From Podarcis vaucheri (taxonomy: Eukaryota), in assembly GCA_965113315.1 (NCBI GenBank), contig OZ220376.1: DNA of 64,000 nt. One strand, 5' to 3'. Made by a program: the position numbers and the translations under genes. Below the pieces are notes generated by a model. It was given only the letters and a program-made list of their open reading frames with translations, did not search any database and was not told the origin of the DNA. Below, piece after piece: positions 3,142 to 52,647 of this stretch; position 1 is the stretch's first letter; each line of letters starts with the position of its first letter.

Positions 3142-3147
3142 TTTATT
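3142..3147 (-). terminator. Probable NMB polyadenylation signal (AATAAA)
   Basis: Plus-strand tttatt = AATAAA on the minus strand, about 220 nt after the NMB stop. Confidence 0.6.
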
Positions 3148-3366
3148 CACCATGCCTCCTCCACCAGCCGCTGCAGCACAAGGAAATGCCAGGAATTTTC
3201 TATACAGTCAATACTTGGTTCTTCAGAGGAAGGGGGGGAGGTCAGTATTAGGATTACAGTTATAAATTTGATATTTTACACTACAATTCTTGATGCTTTC
3301 ATTGGGAACAGCCCTTCAGGAGCTCACTTTCCCCCAAGTCTGTGGTGTTTTCCTCAGTTCATCCAT

Positions 3367-3408
3367 TTAAATGTATTTTGCCAGGTACTTTGTGAAGAAA
3401 GGTATTTC
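3367..3408 (-). CDS. NMB: Neuromedin B precursor, coding exon 3 (EIPFFTKYLAKYI*)
   Basis: Acceptor gtttttcgttacag|GAA, phase 0 matches exon 2. Short terminal exon resembles sauropsid NMB C-termini as I recall them. TAA at 3367-3369; AATAAA follows about 220 nt downstream. Confidence 0.82.
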   Translation of the reverse strand, partial: EIPFFTKYLAKYI

Positions 3409-3566
3409 CTGTAACGAAAAACACAGGCATCAGTAGCTTACACTTCAGCATAATAGAAAGCAAACTGGCCTTGCCCACTGATGAGAGAAGAGTATAGCTA
3501 CTCCATCACCACCTTGGACATCTAAAGTGGGTTTTACCCCCTCCTGGGCTGTGTGGGCTCCTTGAC

Positions 3567-4182
3567 TTGCTCTGCTGGGATTCCGATTCAGAGGATGAAC
3601 CAGAGGAATCCCAGCCTGCACAGGAGTCCCCGCCTCCAGGGCCGGCTGAACTGGGGCAGGGCCTTGATTCTGAGGCGCCTGCACCTGTGCCGGATCCTCA
3701 GGAGCAGGCACCAGGTGAATCCACTCTGGCTCCAGATGTGGTTGAGGACTCATTGCCTACAGGTGAGTCTCCCCCTGGGCCCAGTAACCCTTCAGCCTCT
3801 CCTGAACTGCAGAGGCTCAGGGCAGAGAGGTGAAGGGAACTGGTTTCTCCCAGGAGGAGTGCTCACCTTAAGGCCAGGAGAGGCGGGTCTCCTGGGGGCC
3901 TGGACCGCCCCTGGCCTCAGAGAAGATAAAGGCCAGTCAGTCCGGTCCCAGGTTGCGGAAGCAACGTTGTTGTTGAGTACCTGCTCCTACCCGGACCCAG
4001 ACCTGACCTTCCAGTGTTCCTGTTCCCCGCCCGGCTTCCTGCTTCTGACCTTCCAGTGTTCCTGTTCCTGCCCGGCCTCCTGCTTCGGACCTCGCCTCGC
4101 TCCTTGTGACCTGTTTCCAGGCTAGTGACTCAGGACTGAACTTGGACTACGATAACGGTAACCTTCCTCCCGGGACCAGCAC
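3567..4182 (+). mobile_element. Solo-LTR-like element in NMB intron 2
   Basis: GC-richer block with an acidic Pro-rich pseudo-ORF ending ...PRRSAHL, a TATA-like gataaa and internal tandem ctgaccttccagtgttcctgttcc repeats; ends ...CA. No clear TSD, so boundaries are approximate. Confidence 0.45.
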
Positions 4183-4275
4183 ATTATGGAAGGAAGCGAC
4201 ATGATCTCATCTTTTTAGTAAGTCAGCTAATGTTAGAAGGATGACAGCCACCCTTCTGAGGCCTTCAGGTAAATA

Positions 4276-4625
4276 AAAGGTAAAAGGACCCCTGACCATT
4301 AGGTCCAGTCGCAGACGACTCTGGGGTTGCGGCGCTCATCTCGCTTTATTGGCCAAGGGAGCCGGCGTACAGCTTCTGGGTCATGTGGCCAACATGACTA
4401 AGCCACTTCTGGCAAACCAGAGCAGTGCACGGAAATGCCGTTTACCTTCCCACCAGAGTGGTACCTATTTATCTACTTGCACTTGACATGCTTTCGAACT
4501 GCTAGGTTGGCAGGAGCTGGGACCAAGCAATGGGAGCTCACCCTGTTGCAGGGATTTGAACCACCAACCTTCTGATCGGCAAGCCCTAGGCTCTGTGGTT
4601 TAGACCACAGCGCCACCCGTGTCCC
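4276..4625 (-). mobile_element. Sauria SINE
   Basis: tRNA-like head, ACCTTT-type tail, 13-bp TSD cttcaggtaaata (4263-4275 / 4626-4638). Confidence 0.92.
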
Positions 4626-5345
4626 CTTCAGGTAAATAGATGACATCAAATTGTTGCACTGAAATGGGGTTTATTACATTAAGACCTCTCTGGTAGTGAA
4701 CCTACCTAGACCAGAGAGTGATGAGCAACAATGATCTGGTGATCCCTGAGATCAGGCACCTGGGTGGGGTTCAGGACCTTGGAGAGCTCTCTAGCCCAAG
4801 CGGGAGATGTTGTGCAACAAAGCCAAACTGCATTAAAAGGAGAGGGGTTCTGGTACCAGCCCACAAGAAATAGCTGGAGGAACCTAGGAAGCACTGGCTC
4901 TGCCCACCTGATAAACTTGGAAGAGGCAAGGATTTGGCATGATAGTCAAATCCCCGCTCCGGGATGCAATTAAATCCCAGTGTCAGAAAAGGGGAGGGAG
5001 TTCCCCAGAGCTATCTCTACCACCACTGGTGCCAGCAGGATCCTTGCCATGCTGGTCTGCTCCCTACAGTAGGAGGAGGACCAAGGGAAACACATTGAGA
5101 AGGCGTTAATAAATAAAATACAGACACCGACTTTATTCCTTTCCTACAAATTCCTTACGTAGTTTCCTCTGATGGCTGCAGTGCATCGCACAAGTGTTTG
5201 CAACCACTGCTTTTTTTCTGGAGGGACGCAGGGTACACGTACCCCTAAACATTCTGTGAATCTCTGTACTTTTGTCCATTTACTGTATTTATTTTCCTTG
5301 ATTTGAACTATAAAATGGTGATTTTCTTGAGTAAAAATGAGAGTA

Positions 5346-5579
5346 CAGTGGTACCTCAGGTTACATACACTTCAGGTTACACACGCTTCAGGTTACAGAC
5401 TCCGCTAACCCAGAAATATTACCTTGGGTTAAGAACTTTGCTTCAGGATGAGAACAGAAATTGCGCGGTGGTGGCAGTGGGAGGCCCCATTAGCTAAAGT
5501 GGTGCTTCAGGTTAAGAACAGTTTCAGGTTAAGAACAGACCTCCAGAACGAATTAAGTTCTTAACCCAAGGTACCACTG
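5346..5579. mobile_element. Tc1/mariner-pogo type MITE nested in an older element (~5206-5615)
   Basis: TIRs cagtggtacctc / aaggtaccactg, TA flanks; the host sequence resumes on both sides. Confidence 0.8.
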
Positions 5580-6007
5580 TACTCCTAAACACTTTTAAAG
5601 GGGGGAAAAACACTGTCTGCGACACACAATGGTCTGAGCACAGTTAACTAACTCAAACATGGACCACATTTCACAGGCAGTCCTGTTTCCAAAATGAGAC
5701 TAGAATTAGTTGACTCTGCCTGCCATTGGCTCTGGCTCCACCTGGTGCAGCAATCAAATTGCTAGCACATTTGCAAAGCTAGGCAGGGTCAGGTATGGCT
5801 TCAAAATGGATTGGGGGACCACGTGTTGAGGTTCATGCATTGCAGGGGTTGGAGTAAATGACCCTCAGGGTCCCTTCCAACTCTAACATACTATGATGCT
5901 ATCACTGGCTCTACTGTCAGCCGCCTAGTCTTCTGTGCCACCAGTCCCACTGGGCACTAGCCACCACATTCATTCCCTTCCGGACATCTAGAGAGGATGG
6001 TGCTCAC

Positions 6008-6204
6008 CTGGTCATTGGGATCACGCTTCCCTCGGTTCTCCTCCAGCAGCTTCTCTTGCAGAAGCATTTTAAGAAGTTCGCTCATCATCAGGTCTTTCAT
6101 CCCCTCTCTGAAAGCCTTGGGGGTGCTGTTGGTCTCTGAACTTTCTGAGAATGCAGACTGGACATGAGGAGAGCTTAGCATACTCTTCTTCCCCATGAAA
6201 TGCC
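6008..6204 (-). CDS. NMB: Neuromedin B precursor, coding exon 2 (G-HFM-GKK + C-terminal extension)
   Basis: Acceptor tcatttcag|GG CAT TTC ATG GGG AAG AAG completes WATGHFM-GKK (amidation + dibasic site). Continues to ...ELLKMLLQEKLLEENRGKRDPNDQ; donor CAG|gtgagc, phase 0. Confidence 0.93.
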
Positions 6205-7255
6205 CTGAAATGACACCAATTCTGGTCAGTACAGTGCTGGCCCAATTTTATTTTAATTTTTTTTGAAGGAGAGCTTTTGTGCACGATGGTTTGAGGGGTC
6301 TCACCACAGCCACATCCTCTTCCTTGCTGCTGTTGTCGGCCCATTGACTTGTTTTCTTCATTTGGGCTCAAACAGGGGTATGGGAGTACCTAGGGTTCAT
6401 CAAGCTGGGCCCTGCCAAAGGCACATGCCCAGGGTGTGTATGCAAAAATCATGCCTCTCCATTTTGCCTTAGAGTGGGGGCCATCCTTACCAGGGTGCCA
6501 GGGATGGAGGCACGCCGACACAGTTCCTTGTCAAGGGCACAAGGAAGCCTAGATACACCTCTGAAGAGGGAGAATGGAACCAAGTGCCTAGAAATCTGCA
6601 AAGGACAACTCCACGCAATAACATTTTATTGCAGATCCCACCTTTTATTATATGCTATTGAAAATGGATTTTGTTGGATATCATGCGTGTGCTCTTTAAA
6701 AACAAATGAATAAATAAATAGCCCTGCTTTTTTTAAAAAATCACCCCGTCTTTCCACTTTTCCAGGCAGCATGTGGCCATCTTCTTACCAGAATGCAAAT
6801 TTTCAGAGGAAGGAAGCACTTTTAAGTAACAATCAAGGTGGAGATTTGGACTTCATGACCTGCCCTCTACCTCAATCGCCACACCATGGCAGCCCTGCAA
6901 GAGAAACTATGGGGTGTCGTAAGGCACTATACTGTCTCTGATGCTATTTAACATTGACATGAAGCCATCAGGAGCAGTGAGGAGGAGATCTGGAGCAAGA
7001 TGTCATCAGTACACTGATGATACCCAACTCCCATTTCTCAGTAACATCTGAACTGGGAACGGCTGAGCAGGTGCAGGACCAATGTTGGTGTGCAGTGAAT
7101 AATATTATTCCTGGTGAGGAATAATAAAGTCTGCATCCTGACAGGCTGGAGTCTCTAGAAAAGTGGTTTCCAGACCCAGGAAGTCTGCCTTGGGTTGAGA
7201 TGCTGTCCCTGAAGCATTGGTGCTGTACCTGGATTCAGCTGCCTCTGGAAGTGCA

Positions 7256-7458
7256 AATAAAAAAATTCCTTCCAGTAGCACCTTAAAGACCAACTAAGTT
7301 AGTTCTTGGTATGAGCTTTCGTGTGCATGCACACTTCTTCAGTGTGCATGCACACGAAAGCTCATACCAAGAACTAACTTAGTTGGTCTTTAAGGTGCTA
7401 CTGGAAGGAATTTTTTTATTTTGACTATGGCAGACCAACACGGCTACCTATCTGTATG
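7256..7458. mobile_element. Penelope-like element remnant as an inverted (palindromic) pair
   Basis: Perfect 81-bp arms (7255-7335 / 7341-7421) with a 5-nt loop; minimal hammerhead core on the minus strand; 10-bp flanking direct repeat tggaagtgca (7246-7255 / 7459-7468). Confidence 0.75.
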
Positions 7459-9118
7459 TGGAAGTGCAGGTGCCCTTGGTGACTAAAGCACTTTCCCCCA
7501 ACTTTGGCTTGTAGGACAGCTATGATTGTTTCTGGATCAGGACAGCTTGACCACAGTTGCCCATGCACTGGTAACCTGGAGACTGGATTCCTGTAATGCG
7601 CTTTGCGCAATTGAGGTTGGTCTGGAAGTTTCAGCTGGTGCCAAATGCAGCAGCCATGTTGCTTGAGGGGCCGAACTCCCACCATCATGTAACCCTTTGT
7701 GGGATTTGCACTGGCTGCGCACCTGCTACGAGGCCAAGTTCAAGGCTGGGTACTAGCTTGTAAGACCCTCTGCAGCTCAGGACCAGGTTACTCGATGGAC
7801 TGCATTATCCCTTATATACGCAGCAGATTGCTGCCGTCTGTGGCAGAGCTTCTCCTACAAGTTCCAGAGTGGTTTGTATCCTGCTTGGTAGGATACTGCC
7901 CTGAGACCTGCAGGTATAGGGTGGCATATAAATCAAATCAAATCAAAATAAAATAAATACAGAACAGGGCAGTCTGTGTGGCTGCCGTTAGTCTGTGTAA
8001 CAGCATTCCCATCAAGGCAAGCAGGCGCCCAATACCTGCACTTTCCAGAAACAACGGAAGACATTTTTGTTCCAACAGCTGGACAAACAGGTCTGTGCCA
8101 TGGATATTTACTTCACAATACTTTTTAAAATTGATCTGTTATTTCCTGCATTGTTTTAAACTGTTTTTAGCTGTTCTCATTGCATTTTTGGGGGGCATCC
8201 CCTTGGGACATATGTGTGGAAGGTGATTAATAAACAAATTAATAAAGTTCCAAGCATCACCAGTGGTGAAATAATTGCTGCTCTGTTAATTTGTCCATCC
8301 TGGACAGAGACTGGATTTTCAACCTGATGACACGGGGAGCTGTCCCCTCTCCTGCTGCTGAAAGCATTGTTTTCTGACCCTCTGTGCCTGGCTTTCCAAA
8401 CAACCCCACACGCAAATCAAACCCAGCGCTGCATTAAAGTCTTAAAAACAAAGCAAAACAGCAATGTATTGATCTGCCATTTAGTTAAAGGATACGGTGT
8501 TAAAATGCAGCACAAAAATCACCACTGCCACTGTAACTTTCAGCCACGGAATCACGGTTCTGCAGGGCACTGTTTAACCAAATCCCATACAATTTTCCTT
8601 CTCTCGCCCCACAGAGTGACCTACCGGCTTCTTGGTGGCAGGAAGTACCCCCAGGCTCACCTCATCCCACCCCCATTTCCACAGGTCCTTTAGACGACCC
8701 TTCCCCAAGCTGGTGCCCTCCAGACGTTTCAGACAGAGGGAATCCAAAGGAGCCCTCGATGATGGAAGGAACTGGGCACATAACTGATCTCGCAGCACAG
8801 ATTCTACCCACCCTCCCCAAGCCCGCCCCATAACTTTATTATCTTTACACATATGAAAACATTAAACATTAAAAGCTTCCCGATACAGGGCTGCCTTCAG
8901 ATGTCGTCTAAAAGACGGACCCAGGTAAGGAGCACAATTTTGCAGCCTCTGCTCCAGTCCTTCGTTGCCCCCCCCCCCACCCTCTCCAGACACACACGCA
9001 GCCTTTTTTCTGCCAGGATCTTTACTAACAGGCAAGCATTTCCCACCGTCTGCGTTGGGAAGCTGCCCCCTTGGCAGACCGCCCCCTCCAGCGCCGCAGG
9101 GAGACGCAGGGGTCGTAC

Positions 9119-9251
9119 CTGTAGCCCAGAGGTTTTCCCGGAGCCGGATGGGTCCGCCGAGCGAGGGCGAGACAGAAAAAGTGGCGAAAAGGAGCAGATA
9201 AGCCAAGCTCCCCACTTGTAGGATCCTGCTGGCGAATCCTGCCGCCGCCAT
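9119..9251 (-). CDS. NMB: Neuromedin B precursor, coding exon 1 (signal peptide + ...IRLRENLWAT-G)
   Basis: ATG in strong Kozak context (gccATGG). Translates MAAAGFASRILQVGSLAYLLLFATFSVSPSLGGPIRLRENLWAT with a hydrophobic signal core. Donor ACAG|gtacg is phase 1 and splits the Gly of WATGHFM, as in bombesin-family precursors. Confidence 0.93.
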
Positions 9252-9520
9252 GGCTCTCTTTCTGGGCAGCGAGCGGACTTCGACGGACCGACGGGCGGAC
9301 GCGACGCCCTTGTCTCGCCTCCTCTGACCACTAGGTGGCTCCTCTCCTCCAAGCCTCTTTCCTGGTCTTCGCCCCGCGTGCGCTCCTGCTGTTTAAATAG
9401 CCCAGCCGTCGGGGCGGGGACTGACGCGGGGGCAGCGTCACCTTAGCAGCGCTCGCCCAGGGAGGGGTCGCCCTGGAACTGCCTTATCACGATTTTGCGG
9501 CCCAGCGGGACACTTGGGTG
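9252..9520 (-). promoter_or_regulatory. NMB proximal promoter / 5' UTR in a CpG island
   Basis: CpG-rich. TATA-like TATTTAAA (9392-9399, minus), GC box ggggcgggg (9411-9419), inverted half-CRE pair tgacg...cgtca (9422-9440). Confidence 0.65.
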
Positions 9521-25330: not shown

Positions 25331-25450
25331 CCTCTTGCTCGCCCCACCACGTCTTTCTTCTCCAGCCAGTGCTGGCCTTGCTTGTACAAGCCTCTGTCAT
25401 CAACAGCATTATTGTCACCCTTCGTCAAGAACTTGATGTCTCCGTTTTGT
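25331..25450 (-). CDS. SEC11A: SEC11A exon 4
   Basis: Acceptor cctccctaag|, [39 protein letters not shown](G), donor GG|gtaagc; 120 nt. Confidence 0.97.
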
Positions 25451-25835: not shown

Positions 25836-26719
25836 ACTGGAATACTCTGTCAGGTCCAGCAGACTACAGGGTTTAAGGGATGTTGCAAAGCTAAAGGACA
25901 GAGAAAATGTTATCAAGTCAAGCAACTGGGGAGGGGATCACATTAAAAGTAGTTCCTATCAAAAGACAGACAATTTATTTGGTCACTGCAATTTATTTGG
26001 TCACTTTTATGAGAATAGATGTGAGAGGCCTTCTTATAAACATAGAATGCAAGATCCAATAAACAGTCCAATAAACTCAGCGGGGGACAACGACGGGGGG
26101 GACGGGGACGACGACACAGGAACAGCAGCATTCATCCAATAAACTGTGCCGCAGCATAAAATAGCCATGGTTTAGATTCCACATCTATTCCAGAACTGCA
26201 AATACCCCCACTAAGCCAAGGACAGAATGCTATTTCCTGTGTTATTTCCAAGGCAGCCAAACACGTTCAGACATCACACACCCTTATCTTGTGATCTTTA
26301 AAGGATCAGGAAGCAGCTTCCTCTTCTCTTCAAGCACTGGACTTAATAAAACTATTCCAGGTTTAACCAAACTAGTTTGCCGATCTGAATCAGTAACCTG
26401 TGATTTGAACAAGCTGTTCAAATACAATTTCAAAATGAGGATCAAATCATGACTGCACTCCTGGTTCAGAGGGTTTGCTCAAGCCAACTTGATGGTTTGG
26501 ATGCAATGGCAGGCTGTGGTTTATTCAAACCACAAACCAACAAATGAAACTGAGCATAGAAGAGGAGACGGGATTGCACAAGCACAGAACTTGTTCTCTA
26601 TCCTCTAAACCATGGTAATGTGACATCTGAACGCAGACGCTGTCTGGAAAAGGATTCCAGCATAAGGCGACATGTCAGCAGACTTTTGCAGCAATCACCA
26701 TCCAGAAAGGTACACGTAC

Positions 26720-26869
26720 TTTTCATGAATTTTCAAAACCCGATGCACTATTGGAATTTCCCTTCCTTCTATCCTAAAGACCACGATTTCGCCCACTCTG
26801 ATTGGCTCCTCGATACGATTGGTTAAGAACAGGAGATCTCCTCTGTGAAATGCAGGCTCCATACTGCCG
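26720..26869 (-). CDS. SEC11A: SEC11A exon 3 (catalytic Ser of SGSMEP; His of IVHR)
   Basis: Acceptor ttgtcttccag|, (S)[49 protein letters not shown](K), donor AA|gtacgt; 150 nt. Confidence 0.97.
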
Positions 26870-39595: not shown

Positions 39596-40090
39596 TTAAA
39601 TATTTGGAGATTTGGGATGTTTGTTCTGCGTGCTGGGCTTTTCTGCATCACAGGACGTGGGGTCGCCCTCAGAGTCCTGGCTCTTTGAACCACCTCCTTC
39701 CTCGTCTGCAGTGTTCATCTTGCCATTCGGCTCTGCAAGTCCGTTCTCGCTTGTCTCCATTTGCTGAGCCTCTTTTTCAGAATCTGGCTCAGGCTCAGGC
39801 TCCTCCTGTTCCTCCTCCGGATCTTTCACTTTATGAACAATGAAGAGGTGCCTGTTCAGAGAGATGTGAGACGTGTAGCACAAGCCGCAGAGCTGGCACT
39901 GGTACGTGGAGCTGTCCGTCTTGTGCCGAGGTATGTGTTCCAGAAATTCACTCTCAGCGGCCGTTGCAAATCCACACTTGGCGCACTTCCAGTGTGCCTT
40001 CAGTTTTTTTGCTGGTGGATCTTCAGATCCCGATGCCGTAGTTTCCGTTTGGTCCAAACCACCTGCAGATACCCTCTTTGGATATTTTGC
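39596..40090 (-). CDS. ZNF592: Zinc finger protein 592, last coding exon
   Basis: Acceptor ttcatttcctag|GCA. Contains WKCAKCGFAT...HIPRH and YQCQLCGLCYTSHISLNRHLFIVHKVKD plus an acidic tail, matching the ZNF592 C-terminus; TAA 39596-39598. Confidence 0.93.
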   Translation of the reverse strand, partial: AKYPKRVSAGGLDQTETTASGSEDPPAKKLKAHWKCAKCGFATAAESEFLEHIPRHKTDSSTYQCQLCGLCYTSHISLNRHLFIVHKVKDPEEEQEEPEPEPDSEKEAQQMETSENGLAEPNGKMNTADEEGGGSKSQDSEGDPTSCDAEKPSTQNKHPKSPNI

Positions 40091-41394
40091 CTAGGAAATG
40101 AACACATGGCTTTATTGCGCCAATCAGCACCGTAAGACAACGTTCCCGCCCACCATGCGTGCACTGCGAATACAGAGATCCCCAAAGGGCATCTTTTCCC
40201 AACCAGAAGCCCCTCAGATGCTGTTGGACCACAACTCCCATCAGACCCACCCATGCTCAGGGATGATGGGAGACCAACAAGACCTGGAGAGCATTCGGTT
40301 TGGGAAGGCTGCCGTAGGCTATCACATCCATGTCCCCTTCCCTGGCCTCCTCGCTTAGCAAACCAAGCCATTATGAGACTGAGGAAGCCTGTGCACAACT
40401 CCTGTATCCCTGATCAAGCCTTCTGCCTGGTCAAGGAACATGCTATGCCCACAGTGGCCTTGCACAGTGCTTTCACTAGGATGTGTGTGTGCGGGGAAGA
40501 GCGAGAGCACACAAAAATCTCTATTACACCCTATGGAGAGCAGATCCCTTCAGATGTGGGTGCTGTACTCACAGTGGACCTGACCAGGCCATAGACCACT
40601 CCCCAGATCTGATCTATTTTTATGCTCGGGATGGGAAGCATGTGGCCTTCTGGAGGTTTCTGGACTGTAGCTTTCATCCTCCCTGACCACTGGCTAAGCT
40701 TAATAGGAGTTGTAGTCCAATAACCTCTGGAAGTTCTCCATCCCTGACAGACACACAAATGCAATGGAGCAGCATTTTGGGAGGAGGCAGGAAGAAAGAT
40801 TTAGGAACTGCTGCCACCAATGCTTTGCATAAAAAAGGACAAAAGCTGCTGAAAGTGGATGTTCCTTCCAGGTATCACTAATTGTATTAATTGCCTCATC
40901 TGCATTTCATTGTTCTCCATGTGGAAAACTCTCTGTCCCATCTCTAACAATGCCAAAAGATGTCCAACATGACCTGCTACCAGCTCCCTAGAAGCCTCTA
41001 ATTTCTCCTCACATTCTGCCTGGTTATCTTCAGTTTAATTACTCTATTAGTTCGGATTATAATTTAAGTTTCTTCAGTGCACAGGATTGTAATTTAACGA
41101 GGAAACAAGATGAGAGCTAATTTATAAGAGACATGTGCTCAGAGGATAGAGGAACTAGATAGACTGAAACTTCCCTACAGATTTTTAAAAAACCACATTT
41201 TTAATGGGAGATCTAGCAGTTCCTCCAAGAGATTCAGTTTTGTATATAATCTATATCTATACAGAATTCAAATCCTGATGGAAAGAAAAAGCTGAAAATG
41301 AATTCCACAGGCCACAAAAGGAAGGCAGTTCTTGAAGGAGGCCAAGCACATGAGATAGAATTACATATTATTTAAGAAAAGCATGGTAGATTAC

Positions 41395-41530
41395 TTTTGT
41401 CAAGTCTTCTGCCGGAGCTTTGGTTTTGGATATCTGGGAAAGGTCTGGGTTTTTGATGCCGTGCATGAGGCTGATGTGGCTCTCTAGCATGGACAGCTGA
41501 GGAAATGTCTGGATTTCATCTGTGCAGTAC
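41395..41530 (-). CDS. ZNF592: ZNF592 penultimate coding exon
   Basis: Acceptor gtatttttaag|[46 protein letters not shown], donor AAA|gtaatc. Confidence 0.93.
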
Positions 41531-42073
41531 CTTAAAAATACAAAGCAAAATAGTATCATGATATAAGTAGCATTTCTTTTTCATATTTTTTAAAGAAAAT
41601 ATTTTTATTGGATTTTGGTAATGTAAGTGTCTATACAAATATATAAGCAGAAAAAGGTAAAAAGGATTAAAAATAAAATATGCAATATAAAAATAACAAA
41701 AGGAGCAAACAGATTCATGAAAAAGAAAAGGTGTTATGTCACAAGTTAAAGAGAGGATAAACACAGTTCTTCCACAAATCTATGACATGTTTAAAGATGT
41801 CAAGAAGTTAACCCCAAACCTCCCTGCATAATGAAGCATGAGCATTATATCAGTAGTATTCCGCCTCTCATCCCTTACCTATTCTCCTACTTGTCTGTTG
41901 GCTCCCCACAACTATCAATATATTGATTGCAAGTTTCTTGGGGCATGGACCTTATCTTTCTGCTTATGCAAGTAGCTCAAAAATGGACATTTTTGTTTTA
42001 CTTCAGAGGACAGTCGTCAATCCACCTAAACAAATAACCTGTTCCAGTTCTGCCCCCTCAAATGGTTTCAAAT

Positions 42074-42119
<46 letters not shown>

Positions 42120-43050
42120 AATTTGTATATCATCCATCATCAAAAGATCACAGGGTGGTTTACATTTTAAAAACACAAAAATACCTACCATAATAATAGA
42201 AGAAAAACAATTATACATTGGATGACACGAGGCTCTCAAACATTTTTCCTTCTTAATTACTACAAAAGACCAAAAGCAATCTATGTATACATCCACTTCC
42301 AAGAGCCATCTATTTCTATTCCAGCAGCACTATGGCAAACCTGGCCCCTTTTACAGCTCTTCTCTGTACAATGACAAAGGATAACAACGGCTTCCCTTTT
42401 AGAGAATCAATAATTTAAAAAAGAATCAACAAGAGCAGAATCTGTTTCGTCCGTGAGGGAAATGTCAACATTTGTGTCCACATTAGAACTTTCAAGACTA
42501 AATTGCCAGATGTACTTGTACAACAAAATGTACTGTGTATCAGTGAAAGTCACATTCCTGCTCAGAATCAGAGTCTCCTTGGTCATGGATGTCATGAGAA
42601 GATGTGTCACATTTGTGTAATACAGCATTATAAAAGCATCAGTACAAACCTTAACATGCGAGTCTGTTACTAAAGGTGATCATGAAAGGAGTGGATGTCC
42701 ATATTTTATGAAAAGTTGTTTAACTAGCAAAATGTTGGCGTTTAAATACATTTATTCATCAAAATAATAATATTGCAATACTTTCAAAGTACGCATCATT
42801 TTATAGAGTTACATTGGCGGCTACGCTGTAGCAGTTAGAAGTCACCTGTAGACTTGCAGGAAATTTATTTAGTGGTTTGTCTCATTTGTGTCCTCACCTT
42901 TCCCTTCAAATTACAAAGACTAGTCTCTCATTTCATCCACACAACCACCCTGGGAAGGAGGCCAGGCTGAGAGGCAGTGATTTGTTCAAGGTCAGCTTCA
43001 TGACTTTGAACTTGGATCTCCCACCACCAAACCAGGCAGTCTAGCCACTG

Positions 43051-43438
43051 GGTAAAAAGGTAAAGGTAAAGGACCCTTGGATGGTTAAGTCCACTCAAAA
43101 GCGACTATGGGGTTGCGGCGCTTATCTCGCTTTCAGGCCAAGGGAGCCAGCGTTTGTCCACAGACAGCTTTCCGGGTCATGTGGCCAGCATGACTGAACC
43201 GCTTCTGATGCAACAGAACACTGTGACAAGCCAGAGTGCATGGAAACACCGTTTTACCTACCTGCCGCAGCAGTACCTATTTATCTACTTGCCCTGGTGT
43301 GCTTTCGAACTGCTAGGTTGGCAGAAACTGGGAGAAGGCAACAGGAGCTCACCACCGGTGCATGGATTCGAACTGCCAACCTTCCAATCAGCAAGCCCAA
43401 GAGGCTCAGTGGTTTAGACCACAGCGCCACCCGCTCCC
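43051..43438 (-). mobile_element. Sauria SINE (third subfamily)
   Basis: aaaggt tail repeats and Sauria core with a variant 3' region. Confidence 0.85.
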
Positions 43439-43930
43439 CTGCTGTGGGCTATGCCAATCAGGTGTCTGCGCTAAGTTCGGCATCAATATGGCGAACCCTG
43501 GGGAGCTGAGTTGCGCCAGGTTGCCCAAGGAGGGGTGAACCAGCCCAGGTTGGAGATGGAGCAGGTAAAAACTCCCATGCCGATCAGTAGTGGGACTGTG
43601 CCTGTGAATAGCCACTGCAGCCTTACCTGGGCAAGACAGCAAAACCCAGACTCTAACCACTACACCACACTGGCTCCAGCAAAGTTAATATAGAAGGAAC
43701 TAAGCATTCTACATTTGCTTAGATATAGCCCAGTGGTTGCATCATCAATGCCTAACGTGCTTCAGTCTTATCATGGAATCTAGCTGTGAAACCTAAAAAT
43801 GTACCTGAGTTAGTGCAAGATCCTTTGTTCTAAGCTATGCCCTAAAAAGCCTTAGATATGGCCCATTACAAAGCACTTTTTTAGCCTGGAAGACTCATAG
43901 AAATTTTCAGGAAAACAGTTGTGTACTCAC

Positions 43931-44043
43931 CAGCAGGTGTAAACTTTCTTTGCTGTGTCATGGTTATTGCGTACATGTCTGTGCAGACTATTGGAGGCGT
44001 TGAATGACCGCTCACACTGCCGACAGGGATATCTTTTCACATT
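43931..44043 (-). CDS. ZNF592: ZNF592 coding exon (C2H2 finger)
   Basis: Acceptor cattcctctcatag|, [37 protein letters not shown](W), donor TG|gtgagt. Confidence 0.94.
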
Positions 44044-44964
44044 CTATGAGAGGAATGGGAGCGTTAGTCCTAACAGCAAGAATGAGCTGCCTCTTTTTTT
44101 TTTGGTCTTGATCTGTGCAAAAGAATCCACACAATCTAGATTTGTGTACTAGCATCTGTAATGCATCTGCCTGTATCCTTGATCTGACAAAGTGTACTTT
44201 TGTGAGACATGGAAAACACATTTAAGAGTCCTGGCCAATTGTGGCCCTTAGGTGTGCATTTCTCAAGGGGTTACAGACATGTTTTTCTTCGAGAGTCGCT
44301 GTGCTCACCATAGAGACATGCAATTGACCTGCTACAAACATGTGTCTCTTGCAGCATAAAAAGCAGCCCTTGGCCATAAACCTGATAAGCTTGCCTTGAG
44401 CCAGTTCCCCATCTGCAGAATGCGAATGTTCATGATCTAATTTATAATATTTTTGTGGAGAAGAATCCCGATAATGCTTATGCATTTGCAGTCAATACAG
44501 TTTCAGAAACATATGGTCTTAAAAGGGGAACACATGGAGAGAGAGAAAGAAAGAAACATACTCTGAAGTTTATCTCTGATGCTGCCACAGGACTGCAGAG
44601 ACCAAAATGAACAATGCATCTACTCAGGCTCTCACCCTGCTACAAGGTTTATGTAATAAGCAATTTTATTTGTTTAGATGTAAGCTATAACAAACATAAA
44701 ATGTATGTATGAGGTTTAGATTAGATTTGCACATTGCTTCTTATTACGAAGGTCCTGAAATAATTTGCAAACAAAACAAACTCCACACAACCATTATTAA
44801 AAACAGATGCAACAGTACAGCCATATCATTGGTGCTGCCTAAATGGTGCTGCCTAAAACAAAAACTTGTTCCCCTGGAGCTCAAACAATGACAGGCAGGC
44901 TGCTGAAGAGTTTTAGATGAATCCTGTGGGAAAGAGGAACAAAATATAGCCCCCAGACCCTTAC

Positions 44965-45228
44965 CTTTCCATGGCTTTTCCTCATATGGGACACATAGGT
45001 TTCTCGGTCAGGGATGCACTGCGAACACTCCCGACATGTCCAACTGCAGGGTTTTGGCTTGGGTTTTGATTCTGGGCTCGTCCCTTTTGTGGGCAAAGAG
45101 GTCTGGGAAGTACCATTGATTACTGAAAGCTCCTTTGATGCTGGAAGAACACTGCTGTTAGTTGCTGTTTCTGTCTTCTGTCGGAAGCTAGCAAGATCTT
45201 CAGGATTCTCAGGGACCCCATGGACGCT
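44965..45228 (-). CDS. ZNF592: ZNF592 coding exon
   Basis: Acceptor tttgttcattag|, SVHGVPENPEDL...WTCRECSQCIPDRETYVSHMRKSHGK, donor AAG|gtaagg; 264 nt, phase 0/0. Confidence 0.93.
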
Positions 45229-46821
45229 CTAATGAACAAAAACAAAAAATCCACAGCATTAGAGCAGGGCAAAGGGAAGTTGCCTATTTTCCTAAAATAG
45301 CAGGAAACTGCTCTGCTTAACAAAAGCATATCATTTCCCACCTCCTTCTTTTTTAGACAGCCCAGGACTAAGATAGAGATTATGTCCATAGCCAATAGGC
45401 TATGTTAACCCTAATGCAGTGTGATTCATTCCATCAACACAGTGAGAAACTATGCACTTAAATTATAACAGAACAGCATAGTGTGTTTGCAGCAGACTTA
45501 AGACTGAATTCACAGTTTGGAGGATTGTGAAAAAGTGCTGCTGCTGTAGAATGCTGCCTCCTCTGGCTCTGTGCAGAACATTATGGTTTGCAGATACATC
45601 CAAACTGGCAAACTAAAGTTTGAGCAAGCCCTCCAAACTGGGATTGCAAATCCTAGTTTGGAATGCTTGATGAAAGGAAAAGGGAGTGTGAGAGCACACG
45701 TGTTTGTTCACAATCCTCAATATTCACATCAAGCTTGGCCCAAGGATGTGATCTGAGGAAACTGCACCCCGGTTTGTCAATTAAACTCTGAACCAATGCA
45801 AAGTGAAATGCCATGAAAGCTCTTCCTTGAGTACAAAAGTAGCAGGTGGTCACTGTTGCTTTTCAGACAGAAAGATACAGGCAAAATTTAACTAGATGCT
45901 GCAGCTAAATCATTCAGCCTCTCCAATACATGTTTTGAAGAGTGCTTCTGTAAAATATTTTCTTGCTTGTGAACAGCCTGAACGTCAGGAAGGAAAGAAG
46001 CCTAGCTTGTAACCCAAGAGGAAGGAAGGAACCTGCAGCCCTCTAGATGATGGATTCCAACTTCCATCATCCTTACCATTGGCCTTGTTGGCTGGAAATG
46101 ATGGGAGTTGGAATCCAACAAGACTTGAGAGTCACAAATTTTGCAGCTCTTAAGTTTTCCAGGGAATTTTGGAGGCATGAAGAGAATTAATATGCCTGAT
46201 ACACTTATTTATTAGAAGAATTTTTATTTTCGCCCTTCAATCATATTTTCAGGGCAATTTACACAAAGAACAATAAAATGTGGAGGGGGGGGAGCATGCC
46301 TGTGCACATACAGAAATGCACATATACACAACAAGCTAAAAACCCACAAAATTATAAAAGCAGCATTAAACAGTTAACAGGCTTAAACCTGCATTTTAAA
46401 AGCTTTAGATAGTATTTGGCACTGAAAAGAGAGCATTCCACAACTGGTCTTCAGGCACATACTACTACTGACAAGGGAAGAGTTTCACGTATGGGCAGGT
46501 GCACATGGAGAGCAGTGACCCTTCAATTACGCTGGTCACTTTGCACTGCGCCCAGAAATGAACTGGGAGGCAGTGAGTATAGCACCAGTCTCAGTAAGAA
46601 ATCTAGATGCTGTAGGTACTTGGACTATTAACGCAACACACTTCTGGGAGGACTGTTTTACACGCAATCTTTGAATTGGTTTTGAGGCTGCTTGTGAAGA
46701 TATCCACCAGTGGTGGGTAAAAAAGAAAGAAGGGCGGCCGATGTGTTTCATGCAAAGCAATCTCAATTCAGAAGGTAGAAAAGTGTTCTGTGCAGGCATG
46801 GTATCCTCTCCAGTCACCAAC

Positions 46822-46981
46822 CTTAACATGCTGCATTAGCTGAAGTTTCTGCATATACACCAGCTGGCAATGCGGACACTTGAACACTCCCACCATCAGC
46901 CTGTTGGCATTCTGCTGGAAGTGCTCCTGCAGAAGCCTCTTCTTGTTAAAGACTGTCTCACAAGAGCATTTGTAGATCACC
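46822..46981 (-). CDS. ZNF592: ZNF592 coding exon
   Basis: Acceptor aattgttccag|[22 protein letters not shown]...[23 protein letters not shown], donor AAG|gttggt. Confidence 0.93.
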
Positions 46982-47708
46982 CTGGAACAATTGAAAAATG
47001 AATTAGCAATGAAAGTTTACTCTAAACAAAAAAATCAACATAGAAAAATTTATTATCATCATCATCAAATTAATTATTGAAGTATTATTATTATTTATTC
47101 AATATATATACCACCCCCTGTATCAGAAGATCTCAGGGCAGTGTACAACATTAGAAACCCAACTCCAACAAAATGCCTTGGAAACATGTATTTTAACAGG
47201 AAACATTGTTGTGATGTCACCTGGCGGGTGGGTCTCAATTCTGTTTTGCTGCAAGTGGCTGTTCCCAGCAGGAACAGCTTACAGGTGACGGTTAAATCCT
47301 GCTCCATTTGGCTGAGCGCATCTGTTCCCTCTTTGTAACAGGTGCATACAGTCAAAGGAAGCAGAAGAAAAACACTGAGTCTGCTTGCTTTCACTGTGTG
47401 CGCCTGTTCCATGGAAAGAGGTGCCTGCAGCAAAAGCAGACCTGTTTTAATTCTGCATCAATACATGAAAGGGGGGGAGGAGAGAGAAACCGCTAGGGAA
47501 GGTTGATCCTTGCAAAGGGGGTTTTCCCATCCCCTTCCTGGGAAGCGTGTACTGAGCAGAGGTTAAATTCTGCTCCATTTTGCTGCACACAGCTCCCAGG
47601 GGGAATGGGGAAAGAACTGCTTTTGCAAGAATCAGCCTTCCACAAGTGTTTTTCCCCATCTCCTGGGAGCTGCAATTTCTCCTTCATGCATCAGTTGGAT
47701 CTACCTTT

Positions 47709-47751
<43 letters not shown>

Positions 47752-48642
47752 CTTCAGAAAGAAGGGAAGGGGCTCATTTTAACATTGCTCCAGTATGGAC
47801 TTTTGATGGGTGGGTGTGTTGCCCACCTGTCAATCATGTGGAGTGCCTCACTCACCTATCAAATTTGGCCTGTGAAGCTAATCCTGATAAGGATTTGGCC
47901 CACAGAGGCAAAAAGGTTCTCCACTCCTGCTCTAAGTGCTGCTATTTATTTTAATTTGTAGTTCTGCCCGACAGGCTCTTCCTGAAGCTCCCATTACTGC
48001 TTCTCTAGCAGACAAGAATTACAAGGCAATTTCACAGAGACATGGAATCAAAAGGACTTTGGAGGGCATCTATTTCCAATCTCCTGCTCAATGCAGGACC
48101 TGAAATCCTGGATGCAAGTACAGCATTCCCAACAGATGGCTGCCCAACGTAAATATAACCAGTGAAGGAGACCCCGACAGCTCTGCAGACAGTCTGTTCC
48201 CACTGTCAAACAGCTCTTACCACTGTTTATCCTCATGGTTTGCCAAAATGGGTTTCTGTGCAATAACCATCCATTGGTTCTAGGATGCCCTCTGGAGAAA
48301 CGCGTAACATCATGCAGAGCACAGGGGCTGTCTGTACGCTAACAGATGATAAATCCGTCCTTGCTTCTTTCCAAGTGTGAAAAGTCTTAGGAGCAGATGG
48401 GCTACATAACTAAATATTAAGATAACTAGAAAACAAGATTTCTGCCTAACCCTTCATTTCTTTAAAAGAGAAGGTATGCAGATCCTACTAAAAACTGTCT
48501 CCACAACACAGTTTATTCTCTCTCTCTCCATATAGTTGGGACAACAACGTTCTTGTAAGCCCGGTGGGGATGGGCATAGAAGGCAAACTGGGTAAAGAGG
48601 AGAAATTGAGCAATACATTTATTTAACCGGGCAGCCACTTAC

Positions 48643-48819
48643 TGAGATGTCTTATGAGGTTCTGCGGGGTGCTGACTGGTAATGTGAGCAGTGGTGCTGT
48701 CTGCAGACTTGAAGGCCATAGGACAGAACGAACACTTGTGGAAGACTTCACAGTGCTTCTCGTGAATGTGCACTTTCAGCATAGCTTGCGACATGAAGAC
48801 AACCCCACAGTGAGTGCAC
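48643..48819 (-). CDS. ZNF592: ZNF592 coding exon
   Basis: Acceptor ctcttttcccag|[52 protein letters not shown]..., donor CA|gtaagt. Confidence 0.94.
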
Positions 48820-49318
48820 CTGGGAAAAGAGAGAGAGAGCTAAACTTGAGCTCTGCAAACCAAAACAAAAAAATCATAAGCACACACTGAGATTTCCGTG
48901 AAAGTTCAGGAAACAAGGACCCACTGAGGTCTGCCTCACTGACCTGGAGGGAGTAGTAAAATCCACAGCATTTGTAAAATCCACAGCATTAAAGTGTTCC
49001 AGGGTGATCAATAATGGCGATAAAGACAAAAATGAATAATAATAATAAAAAAAAACCAGGGGGAAAAGCCTGTTTTCTGATAAGACACTCAAAAGTCCCA
49101 ATGAAATGCACACTGAAAATGTTTTAAAACCTCCAGGGATACAGCTGATCCTGGACAAAGTCACTCCAATTTGAGGGGTGTTCAAATCAAAATGCAACTG
49201 CTGTTAGCCACAAAGCGCTAACAGCAGGACCAAACTTCCTTTCTATTTATTGCCTGCATTAGCCTGGGCTTCAGTGCTTTTATTCCAAGCAAATCAAGTC
49301 ACTTAGGAGTCTGCTAAG

Positions 49319-49670
49319 GTAAAGACAAAGGGACCCCTGACCATTAGGTCCAGTCGTAGCCGACTCTGGGGTTGTGGCGCTCATCTCGCTTTACTGGCCA
49401 AGGGAGCCGGCGTGCAGCTTCCGGGTCATGTGGCCAGCAGGACTAAGCCGCTTCTGGCGAACCAGAGCAGCACACGGAAACGCCGTTTATCTTCCCGCCG
49501 GAGTGGTACCTATTTATCTACTTGCACTTGACGTGCTTTCGAACTGCTAGGTGGGCAGAAGCTGGGACAGAGCAACGGGGGCTCACCCCGTCGTGGGGAT
49601 TCGAACCGCCGACCTAATGATCGGCAAGTCCTAGGCTCTGTGGTTTAACCCACAACGCCACCCACGTCCC
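49319..49670 (-). mobile_element. Sauria SINE
   Basis: TSD taggagtctgctaag (49304-49318 / 49671-49685). Confidence 0.92.
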
Positions 49671-50896
49671 TAGGAGTCTGCTAAGCACCCTTTAATTCAT
49701 GCTGCATTGTTCCAACTAAGCAATAAAAAAGTATTTGGTGCTCATGTTGCTCTTGCTGTTCTGTTTTACATCAAGGGTTGGGAAGCTGTGGTCTCTCCAG
49801 GTGCTGCTGGACTCGCATCAGCCCCAGCCAACATGGCCAACAGCCAGTGATGATGGCAGCTATAGTCCAGCAATTTATATTCTGCTTTCCATGCTCAAGG
49901 AGGCTTACATCATGAAAAAATGCATAATTACAAATATAACAAATATTGTCAGAAACAATACATTTAAAAAATCAGGAAGTACACAACCAAATTGAACAAG
50001 TTCCACATAAAACCATAAGAAGATCTAAAAATAAAGATACAAAAAATAAATATCAATAACAGAAACAAACCCTGCTAACAACCCCCACCCTAAACAATAC
50101 CCAGGAGTCTGTTCAGCAGCCTCAGCTTTTGTAGCTGGAGTCAGTCAGCGTACCACCTTTCCAGGCCAGGTGGGAAAAGGCCTGCAAGGCAGGGAGCAGG
50201 TCTTCCAGGACTCACAGCCAAGATGGCCACATCAAAAGGGCCATAAGTTCCCTGCCTGTAGCATAAAGTCAGTATCGCATCAGTATTTCTTCAGTTAAGA
50301 CACAGAAACACCAAATTTTAGATCAATTCAGTTTTCCCCCCTATGGATACTATTTATTTTTAAAATGTCTAATCCACCGTTTATCCAAATGGTAGTGAAT
50401 AAAAATAAAAATGCAATATAATAATAATAAAAAACACCACCACAGTACCCTCCTTTGCAAGCAACAAAACTGAGAAGCCAGAGAGCGACAGAACTATAAA
50501 GCATACAGAGGAAGCAAACTACGTGTCAGAATCAGACCATCACTACTTCATAACCTTTAAGAGGGCTGTGAAAGTCCATCAAAAAGCCCTGGCATTTGCA
50601 GCATTTCCCCCTCTCTTAGCCTGCAAGCACAGAAGAACACTCATTGCCAAAGTGTCTATAAAGATGTGCCTCCTGAAGGCACGGCAGGACAAACACGCCT
50701 TATCAGCATTTGATATCCTGAAATTGTCAGCCTGTCTGATCACCAAACAAGTTGGCAGCAAAGCTGTGTGGCGTGAAAAGGATTTGATAAGATTTTAAGC
50801 TCCATTCCCCCTCGCCCCATTCATCCCCGCTCGGTGTGCATTAAATGTCACGACACATCTTCCTCGTGCACCCCCACCCCTCAATTGAGCACAAAC

Positions 50897-51075
50897 CTGT
50901 AGCCAACTTTGCGCGAGTAATGAAGGCAGTTCTCCTTGACGTGGGTTTGGAAATAGGCCGACCGGCAAATGGCGCCACACTCTGGGCAGCAATAAGGGGA
51001 TTTGTGAGCATGGATTCTTTGATGAGCACAGTAACTGCACTTGTTGGGCAACAGCATCTGGCACACTTGACAAGT
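50897..51075 (-). CDS. ZNF592: ZNF592 coding exon (most 5' one in window)
   Basis: Acceptor ttcttcctttag|, [59 protein letters not shown](R), donor AG|gtttgt. No further ZNF592-like exon seen in 51076-64000. Confidence 0.95.
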
Positions 51076-52647
51076 CTAAAGGAAGAAAAGGAGATGCCAC
51101 AATTAGCCATTCCTGCTGCACTCTTCACATCTTTTTCCTGCTTCTTTCCATTATGAGAACTTCTACCAACAGAACTTCTTACGTAAATCCTATGGTCTCC
51201 CTTTATCTTCTTACCTTTGCCATGCCACTTCCGTGTTCCATAGAGTGCCCACATACCGCTGGCATTAAATGGTATCCCTACAAATGGGAATTTGGCTTTC
51301 TTCAGCAAGTGTTTTCTCCCCAGGGGTGTGTGTAAAAAGAAAGACAGGTCTAACATAATGCTTATTTCTACTTTCCAAACACCAGGACCATGTTGTAAAG
51401 AGAGCTGTCAGGATTTTCCAGTGACAAGTCGTTCCAATGTCAAATCCTAACGTACTTACCAGTAGAAAGAATTCTGAGGAAGCACTTAAGCCAAGCCAAC
51501 TTAACATTAGCACCATGTTTTCCAGCACCTGAGCAAGGGAATTTCAAGGCCTCTCCCAGATCCCCTCTCTGTAGATCACAAATGACATCAACCCACTCCT
51601 GGTCTATACAACAGGGCACACAGTCACCACTTCTGCTTCCTGGGCCTTCAGTGCTTTGATTCAACCCTAAAGATCTTTCCTTTCTCTGCCCTTGAACTCT
51701 TGTCACTCTCCGTCTGCAGTTTCCTGCCTCCCACCAGTCATGGCTATTCTTGAAGCCCACGTCATGGCTTGCTGCCAATACAGACAATTTGAATTTGACA
51801 GAGGATTGTGCCCTGACACTGCAAAACAGCTCTCCTGCTGATCATTCCATTTTACTACGTACGTTTCTACACAAGTTACAGCAATTTCGTCAGAGGCCTT
51901 ATCATTGTCCCTGAAAGACTCGCAATCCAAGTACTGAATGTTTACTTGACTTACGTACATATGTTTCTATTAATAGCCTCAGAATGGTTTTAAATAGTTA
52001 CCTATTTATATTTTTGTTCTGTGCTTTTAGAACGCCTTTAGTTATTGTTAATATAACCGGTTATCACACACACCCTAAAAATTTGGACCTTTGGGCCTCA
52101 AAACACAGTAAACACTGAAATTCCAGACTAAAAGCTCAGGGAGAACAGTCCAGAATTTCAACAGCCTACAAACCTGCCTCTTCCCATCTCCTTGCCCCTT
52201 AAGATCAACACTGGACTGCATCCCTGCAGGTGGCAAGGAGTGTCAGACAGCAGAACGCTTCTGACCCCTTTCCGTATTCCCCTACAGAAAAAACCTCTGC
52301 ATGTGGAAAGCTTGCACACCAAAGAGGATGAAACTTCTTCCTGACATATTAGCTGTCTATGTGTGAGAAGATTTTTACACAATGGGAAATTTAAGGATAC
52401 TGTTCCCCCACTGCCAGCAGGTTTAAATAGCACAGATGGGGAAAGACTACTGGAACTATGGAATTTCAACATTTAGTATACTCTGGGGCCCAAAGGTCCT
52501 GATTCGCAGAGAGATTGTGGTGGTTGCTTTCATTGGAGTCATGTTTTGGATGCTTAAATCAGGAGTTGGTCTAAGATTCTTCTTCCACAGCAGCTGCCTG
52601 ATACACATTCAGAATTCAATTTAATCATGCTACTGTTTCATCAAGAC

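Follow-up and report, generated by a model that had tools for sequence, protein, structure and literature searches.

Neuromedin B of Podarcis vaucheri is of a squamate type, with glutamate at position 1 and a remodelled N-terminal extension

The neuromedin B (NMB) gene found in the window, that is, the whole 64-kb stretch of DNA that we have analysed, encodes the peptide region ...GPIRLR-ENLWATGHFM-GKK, in which Glu opens the decapeptide. Among the matches listed, Glu occupied this position in 24 of 24 named squamate records, from 23 species, and in none of 102 non-squamate records. In a 34-row tree of the C-terminal part only, 20 squamates grouped as one clade (support 100/99). The variant, which the sequence-only reading had presented as a divergent neuromedin B, is thus squamate-wide. 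With a confidence slightly above even, we favour the reading that this squamate-type NMB would be released here mainly as a 16- to 18-residue amide, with Glu as an internal residue, and would still prefer NMBR.

The gene has three exons on the minus strand, with its ATG at 9251, and SEC11A adjoins it. The features of the locus are as follows.

39599..51100, minus strand: exons of a C2H2 zinc-finger gene, putative ZNF592 (C2H2 motifs; Pfam zf-C2H2_11, 64 bits; named from its position)
26719..26868, minus strand: SEC11A exon, the upstream neighbour and a synteny marker of the NMB locus; more SEC11 motifs near 25425 and 29581
9392..9399, minus strand: TATA-like box TATTTAAA, about 140 nt 5' of the ATG, of presumed function; spliced contigs extend to 9285 and 9318
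9119..9251, minus strand: NMB coding exon 1, 44 codons and one base, with signal peptide, short extension and decapeptide residues 1-6; present in spliced contigs
9156..9251, minus strand: likely signal peptide, residues 1-30 or 1-32, 1-26 being less likely (hydropathy and the (-3,-1) rule of thumb)
9138..9155, minus strand: squamate-type extension GPIRLR, with P34, R36 and R38 invariant in 20/20 aligned squamates
9135..9137, minus strand: position-1 codon GAA, Glu39 of the precursor (sequence; agrees with the X5 contig)
6205..9118, minus strand: intron 1, 2914 nt, GT..AG, phase 1, interrupting the peptide's Gly codon; joined in the X1, X5 and X12 contigs
6008..6204, minus strand: NMB exon 2, with G-H-F-M, the amidation/cleavage signal and C-terminal propeptide (sequence and spliced contigs)
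6185..6193, minus strand: Gly-Lys-Lys amidation and cleavage signal, read from the sequence; GKK in 19 of 20 squamates, GKR in one
3409..6007, minus strand: intron 2, 2599 nt, GT..AG, phase 0 (sequence and spliced contigs)
3142..3408, minus strand: NMB exon 3, coding from 3408 to 3367 (last 13 codons and stop), followed by the 3' UTR with AATAAA at 3147-3142

Exon 1 ends in ...SVSPSLGGPIRLRENLWAT-G (also written ...SPSLGGPIRLRENLWAT-G), and exon 2 starts with G-HFMGKKS. The range first proposed for the peptide gene, 6187..9160, falls within these limits and leaves out exon 3, the greater part of the signal peptide and what follows in exon 2. Exon-wise tblastn showed 122 of 123 residues to be the same as in the annotated neuromedin-B of Podarcis muralis (P0001), and P0001 matched the Pfam Bombesin domain (PF02044) with 34 bits, against a cut-off of 18.1. 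This identity and domain score indicate that the gene call is not a chance result. A PDB sequence search with P0001 gave chance-level matches only (E 1.6).

By its sequence, the gene is a spliced NMB orthologue. The gene order ZNF592-SEC11A-NMB, reported for the NMB/bombesin locus in the accessible text of PMC8233351, was matched in the window, with ZNF592 identified from position. A phase-1 intron within the peptide together with a phase-0 intron is a hallmark of the family (PMC12002301, accessible text); both occur here, the second in the C-terminal part. The peptide is also of NMB type in its L3, T6 and F9 and its GHFM-amide end, as opposed to the H3, V6 and L9 of GRP, these being the respective signatures of the two peptides (PMC9892485). 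The best PDB match of the SEC11A exon was SEC11A (96.4 bits vs 83.9 for SEC11C). We take the neighbour of GRP to be SEC11C, whereas that of NMB here is SEC11A. The homologue searches returned named NMB precursors as best homologues, the tree rows being without GRP. The first assignment of the gene to NMB was thus confirmed by the PF02044 score, the SEC11A synteny, the intron phases and the L3/T6/F9 residues.

We have compared four of the 24 listed sequencing runs with positions 3050-9500. Three of the four (X1, X5 and X12), representing three studies and two organisms, each held a single contig of 537-662 nt that links all three exons at the predicted junctions, with 3' ends at 3145-3158. On the basis of these spliced contigs, the NMB gene is expressed, and the spliced structure proposed from the letters was borne out at both junctions. 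While the X1 and X12 contigs confirm the junctions, support for the Glu codon comes from the X5 contig alone; it covers 9118-9318 with mismatches only at 9180 and 9271, and hence agrees with GAA at 9137-9135, as originally read. In X23, a set of raw reads of which about 12 in 100 were sampled, a few reads matched exons 2 and 3, while exon 1 had none. The strand of these exon 2/3 reads was that expected for minus-strand RNA in most stranded libraries. NMB splicing was visible at low depth, in runs without tissue labels. None of the listed runs is catalogued as RNA, which weighs neither for nor against expression.

The position-1 residue was scored in homologous precursors. Three homologue searches and one representative search yielded 146 distinct proteins, of which 19 lacked the peptide stretch and were dropped, leaving 127; the largest homologue search contributed the best 120 of 547 matches, from 8000 scored candidates. 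The named squamates with Glu span geckos, skinks, lacertids, an amphisbaenian, a tegu, iguanians and snakes, and Glu was found in one further, snake-like record among the matches listed. The 102 non-squamate records comprise 85 from crocodiles, turtles, birds, salamanders, caecilians, lungfish and ray-finned fish and 17 further fish-like ones. Position 1 was Gly in 98 of them, the others having N, N, A and S; in two of the four, an insertion behind Gly brings this about. No Gly-type squamate record appeared among the best 120 matches, though turtles, birds and fish were represented there by Gly-type records, and no second, canonical NMB copy was present in the 64-kb window or among the listed squamate records. 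The named matches include no tuatara, anguimorph, mammal or frog record. For tuatara, there was no record among the best 120 of 547 matches, and a search for shorter proteins gave 0 of 188 candidates. Since no tuatara record was among the named matches, the Gly-to-Glu change would fall anywhere between the archosaur/turtle split and crown squamates.

The substitution comes with a remodelled extension. The motif P-x-R-[LM]-R-E-[NH]-L-W-A-T-G is common to all 24 named squamate records. Among the matches listed, the Arg before Glu was kept in 24/24 squamate records, and the residue before this Arg (P2) was Leu or Met in all 24, vs Pro in 98 of 102 non-squamates. According to the accessible text of PMC12002301, a PRXN motif is common to bombesin-type peptides from echinoderms to chordates. 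Squamates, with Leu or Met before the Arg and Glu after it, thus depart from a very old motif on either side of this residue. In 21 of 24 squamate records, and in none of the 102 others among the matches listed, KR or RR occurred within 14 residues upstream; of the 24, only Podarcis, Zootoca and Rhineura were without it, the tegu Salvator having KR/RR.

In the alignment, most squamates have KR/RR before N-G-P-x-R-x-R-E-N, and the lacertids and Rhineura are without those four residues. The extension would therefore have been shortened in two steps, by about 8 residues in the squamate stem and then by 4 more that include the dibasic pair. Judged from these three species, the four-residue deletion is most simply placed once, in the lacertid-amphisbaenian line. 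Lacertids and amphisbaenians are related lineages. The deletion sets the G-P start directly after the likely signal peptide in Podarcis, Zootoca and Rhineura. Averaged over 20 squamates, the share of the majority residue was highest in the decapeptide (0.98), followed by the extension (0.86), and lower in the C-terminal propeptide (0.70) and signal peptide (0.68); P34, R36, R38 and E39 were invariant. The lacertid C-terminal propeptide is about 7 residues shorter than that of other squamates by alignment.

The length of the product depends on the signal-peptidase site. By the (-3,-1) rule of thumb, Podarcis has three allowed sites, which would give amides of 22, 18 or 16 residues, with 12, 8 or 6 residues before the decapeptide. 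Each of the six outgroups tested has an allowed site that gives exactly 30 residues, and this site aligns with the S30-L31 bond of Podarcis, the 18-residue option. That option is open to Rhineura too, and the 16-residue option is not. The extension of about 6 residues given by the sequence-only reading is thus one of three allowed lengths, and 8 residues appear at least as likely. Its proposal that the extension is too short for NMB-30/32 held in the alignment: there is neither room for a 30-residue form nor a Pro-Arg/Gly-Asn site, the lizard having L-R-E-N and 16-22 residues available.

In the reading that we favour, signal peptidase would cut between S30 and L31 or between G32 and G33. A convertase, carboxypeptidase E and the amidating enzyme would then act at GKK, where C-terminal processing is expected to be normal from the sequence, and would release residues 31-48 or 33-48 of P0001 as an amide. 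In other squamates, a cut after KR/RR would yield a similar 17-mer, so that their product is likely of about 17 residues. The ancestral Pro-Arg/Gly cut that frees the decapeptide would be weakened or lost. What favours the long form is that this site is altered on both sides, that a new dibasic site lies upstream and that the G-P start follows the signal peptide. KR is the commonest cleavage flank in the accessible text of PMC2976990. Mass spectrometry has detected a starfish bombesin-type 14-mer that is located beside its signal peptide and whose N-terminal Glu is written as unmodified; the same peptide was also present as a truncated 10-mer (PMC12002301, accessible text).

Some observations stand against the long form. 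The invariant Arg (24/24) is equally compatible with a cut site that has been retained and with an internal residue that has been retained. In other squamates, the KR/RR pair may follow the signal cut by as few as 1-3 residues, a spacing that is perhaps too short for convertases, and the choice among 16, 18 and 22 residues is a guess from a rule-of-thumb signal site. Conservation of the extension does not decide, since outgroup extensions, too, are highly conserved though they are cut.

A free-Glu decapeptide is the main rival reading, although we hold it to be less likely than the long form, at roughly one chance in four. Arg38-Glu39 would still be cut as in other vertebrates, giving this decapeptide beside a longer form, and the Gly-to-Glu change would be tolerated outside the receptor pocket. 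Arg is kept at P1, in the ancestral position, in 24/24 squamates among the matches listed, and position 1 varies elsewhere too (4 of 102 records, with N, A or an insertion). A basic residue at P8 is favourable for monobasic cleavage, and the upstream Arg of KR/RR sits at P8 in most squamates, fitting this rule; the lacertids, however, are without a basic P8 residue, and no squamate scored has kept Pro at P2. The Arg-Asp cleavage of CCK-8 is a precedent for an acidic P1' residue. Processing at a single Arg does occur (PMC2976990, accessible text). As to mere tolerance, the fixation of Glu in 23 species goes beyond what drift suggests.

The receptor side can be approached by analogy with human structures. 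In the cryo-EM structures of human NMBR and GRPR, only the C-terminal 9 residues (2-10) of the peptide were resolved (PMC9892485), and NMBR selectivity was assigned to positions 3, 6 and 9, i.e. L3, T6 and F9 (PMC9892485; preprint 10.1101/2022.10.10.511544). Residues 2-10 of the lizard peptide are all canonical NMB. With these residues retained, L3, T6 and F9 among them, the preference for NMBR has probably not changed, judging from the human cryo-EM contacts. The altered receptor preference first suggested as possible for the variant finds no support here: position 1 lies outside the resolved NMBR contacts and the selectivity residues are kept. By the human structures, residues 2-10 of the long form would dock as in mammals and signal through Gq via NMBR, and via BRS3 in addition. 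A response to canonical NMB-10 is described for BRS3 from non-placental vertebrates, turtle and chicken among them, in the accessible text of PMC6422423, which names no squamate among the receptors assayed. The minimum for full potency is the 10-mer and not the 9-mer (PMC9892485; 10.1101/2022.10.10.511544), and in frog, a 13-mer and the corresponding 10-mer were of different potency in one tissue out of two (PMC6152109, accessible text). Because of these two observations, Glu or a cationic extension may have modest effects on potency. Since the core that contacts the receptor is the same, altered processing or half-life is more likely than any large shift in function.

It is also conceivable, although we regard it as a tentative and improbable extension of the argument, that stem squamates rewired NMB processing to yield a distinct hormone of 16-18 residues or with a pGlu cap, with its own half-life or receptor balance (e.g. 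on BRS3). If so, the broken PRXN motif, the new KR/RR and the invariant P-x-R-x-R-E would mark a second independent specialisation of NMB beside frog bombesin, and the four-residue deletion would be a molecular mark common to lacertids and amphisbaenians.

A cut after Arg38 followed by glutaminyl cyclase, giving a pGlu amidated decapeptide as a main product, was what the sequence-only reading had inferred, with a likeness to frog skin peptides and a possibly changed stability or receptor preference; we consider it chemically possible but quite doubtful. Glu is invariant in the squamates scored, glutaminyl cyclases accept N-terminal Glu besides Gln, with QPCT active in secretory vesicles (PMC13077600, PMC2892616, accessible text), and frog bombesin is a specialised NMB orthologue (accessible text of PMC8233351). 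This reading, however, depends on two hypothetical steps, the receptor-contact residues 2-10 are canonical, and its cleavage would have to proceed with Pro lost at P2 and, in 21 of 24 squamate records, with a dibasic site upstream. Glu cyclises much more slowly than Gln. The frog-type Gln at the mature N-terminus was present in 0 of 24 squamate records, with Glu in 24/24, although Gln is one transversion away. The frog pGlu that was checked arises from Gln (PMC6152109, accessible text).

An assembly error (GGA for GAA), for which the first reading had allowed, or a private mutation was excluded, with Glu in 23 species and agreement of the independent X5 contig at the codon. Artefact or decay explanations of this kind, including a second copy under relaxed constraint in a genome that also has a canonical NMB, are extremely improbable, given the intact three-exon frame spliced in three studies, the SEC11A synteny and the absence of Gly-type squamate records from the best 120 matches.

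The squamate sequences are already public annotations and stand in two published analyses. A gecko NMB appears in the tree of PMC8233351, with its accession in the supplement, and the NMB alignment of PMC6422423 includes Anolis according to the legend of its S3 Fig, as far as the accessible text of both goes. We found no description of the squamate NMB variant in the literature searched, subscription journals being outside its coverage, and nothing on NMB processing in PMC3499383. Thus, from the provision of the first reading that the variant might be widespread and already described in squamates, the wide distribution stood and the description did not. NMB is described as a peptide of high conservation, human and zebrafish having the same 11 C-terminal residues, and is said to have diversified mainly in frogs (PMC8233351, accessible text). 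Squamates are a second exception to this conservation beside frogs. They offer a natural test of the role of the Pro-Arg/Gly site and of the N-terminal extension, and mammalian NMB-10 is the wrong ligand for lizard and snake work on itch, feeding and thermoregulation.

With the NMB-10/NMB-30 system of other vertebrates, the lizard gene shares the SEC11A synteny, the phase-1 and phase-0 introns, NLWATGHFM, GKK and a homologous C-terminal propeptide. It differs in having Glu and L-R-E-N where the others have Gly and P-R-G-N, and in a long form that, from the aligned signal site, would count 18 residues in contrast to 30 in crocodile, turtle, bird, salamander, caecilian and gar. The NMB of other squamates has an extra four residues with KR/RR, absent from lacertids and Rhineura. 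GRP/neuromedin C belongs to the same family and has the same gene structure, but GRP carries H3, V6 and L9 where the lizard peptide has L3, T6 and F9.

Frog skin bombesin and ranatensin come from an orthologous gene (PMC8233351, accessible text) and share with the squamate peptide a GHFM-amide end (ranatensin group) and a lineage-specific N-terminal remodelling. According to the accessible text of PMC6152109, however, the frog peptides have a Gln-derived pGlu, diverged positions 2-6 and an origin in skin secretions, whereas the squamate core is canonical NMB. The starfish peptide ArBN (PMC12002301, accessible text) is alike in being a short bombesin-type amide beside the signal peptide, and it was found in a long and a truncated form. 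Unlike the lizard NMB, ArBN has kept PRXN, and its C-terminus and receptor are very different.

The sequence at the end of exon 2 contains a motif that could be read as a second processing signal in the NMB precursor:

Window ~6039-6019, minus strand: ENR-G-K-R in the C-terminal propeptide, at the end of exon 2

Judged from its residues, this would be a possible second amidation and convertase site. The alignment revealed a GKR at the same place in four geckos and none there in Zootoca, Rhineura, skinks and snakes; because of this absence, the putative site is probably incidental. The same alignment showed that about 7 C-terminal propeptide residues are missing in lacertids (P0001/P0002; around 6105 in exon 2 of the window) and retained in Rhineura and other squamates, with 6 further residues missing in Zootoca.

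Both introns carry repeats:

Window 7250-7426, intron 1: near-perfect palindrome with 86-nt arms, 98% complementary, and a 5-nt loop; high-copy in the sequencing runs aligned to this part of the window
Window 5341-5584, intron 2: very high-copy repeat
Window 4276-4625, intron 2: very high-copy repeat

The palindrome is a hairpin-type interspersed element. One of the intron 2 repeats has 23-nt terminal inverted repeats and is MITE-like, and the other we take to be SINE-like. A 345-nt contig from run X5 spans 6205-6549, the 3' part of intron 1 as far as its acceptor site, and stems either from pre-mRNA not yet spliced or from an alternative exon upstream.

Two further homologues (P0122, P0134) are divergent, squamate-like products of exon 2 that lack exon 1; they may represent lineages absent among the named matches. 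Comparison of the NMB homologue records showed that decapeptide position 2 is variable as well, with His in three records, those of Anolis and two geckos (P0014, P0016, P0026), and Ser in one falcon record and several turtle records (P0029, P0032, P0033, P0035, P0037, P0038, P0050); the newt Lissotriton (P0081) has N-K at positions 1-2. In the skink Lerista edwardsae (P0004, residues 50-55), TGPFM-GKR has Pro in place of the receptor-contact residue His8. Either the sequence is in error or NMB is decaying in this species; in Tiliqua, the other skink compared, the peptide is intact.
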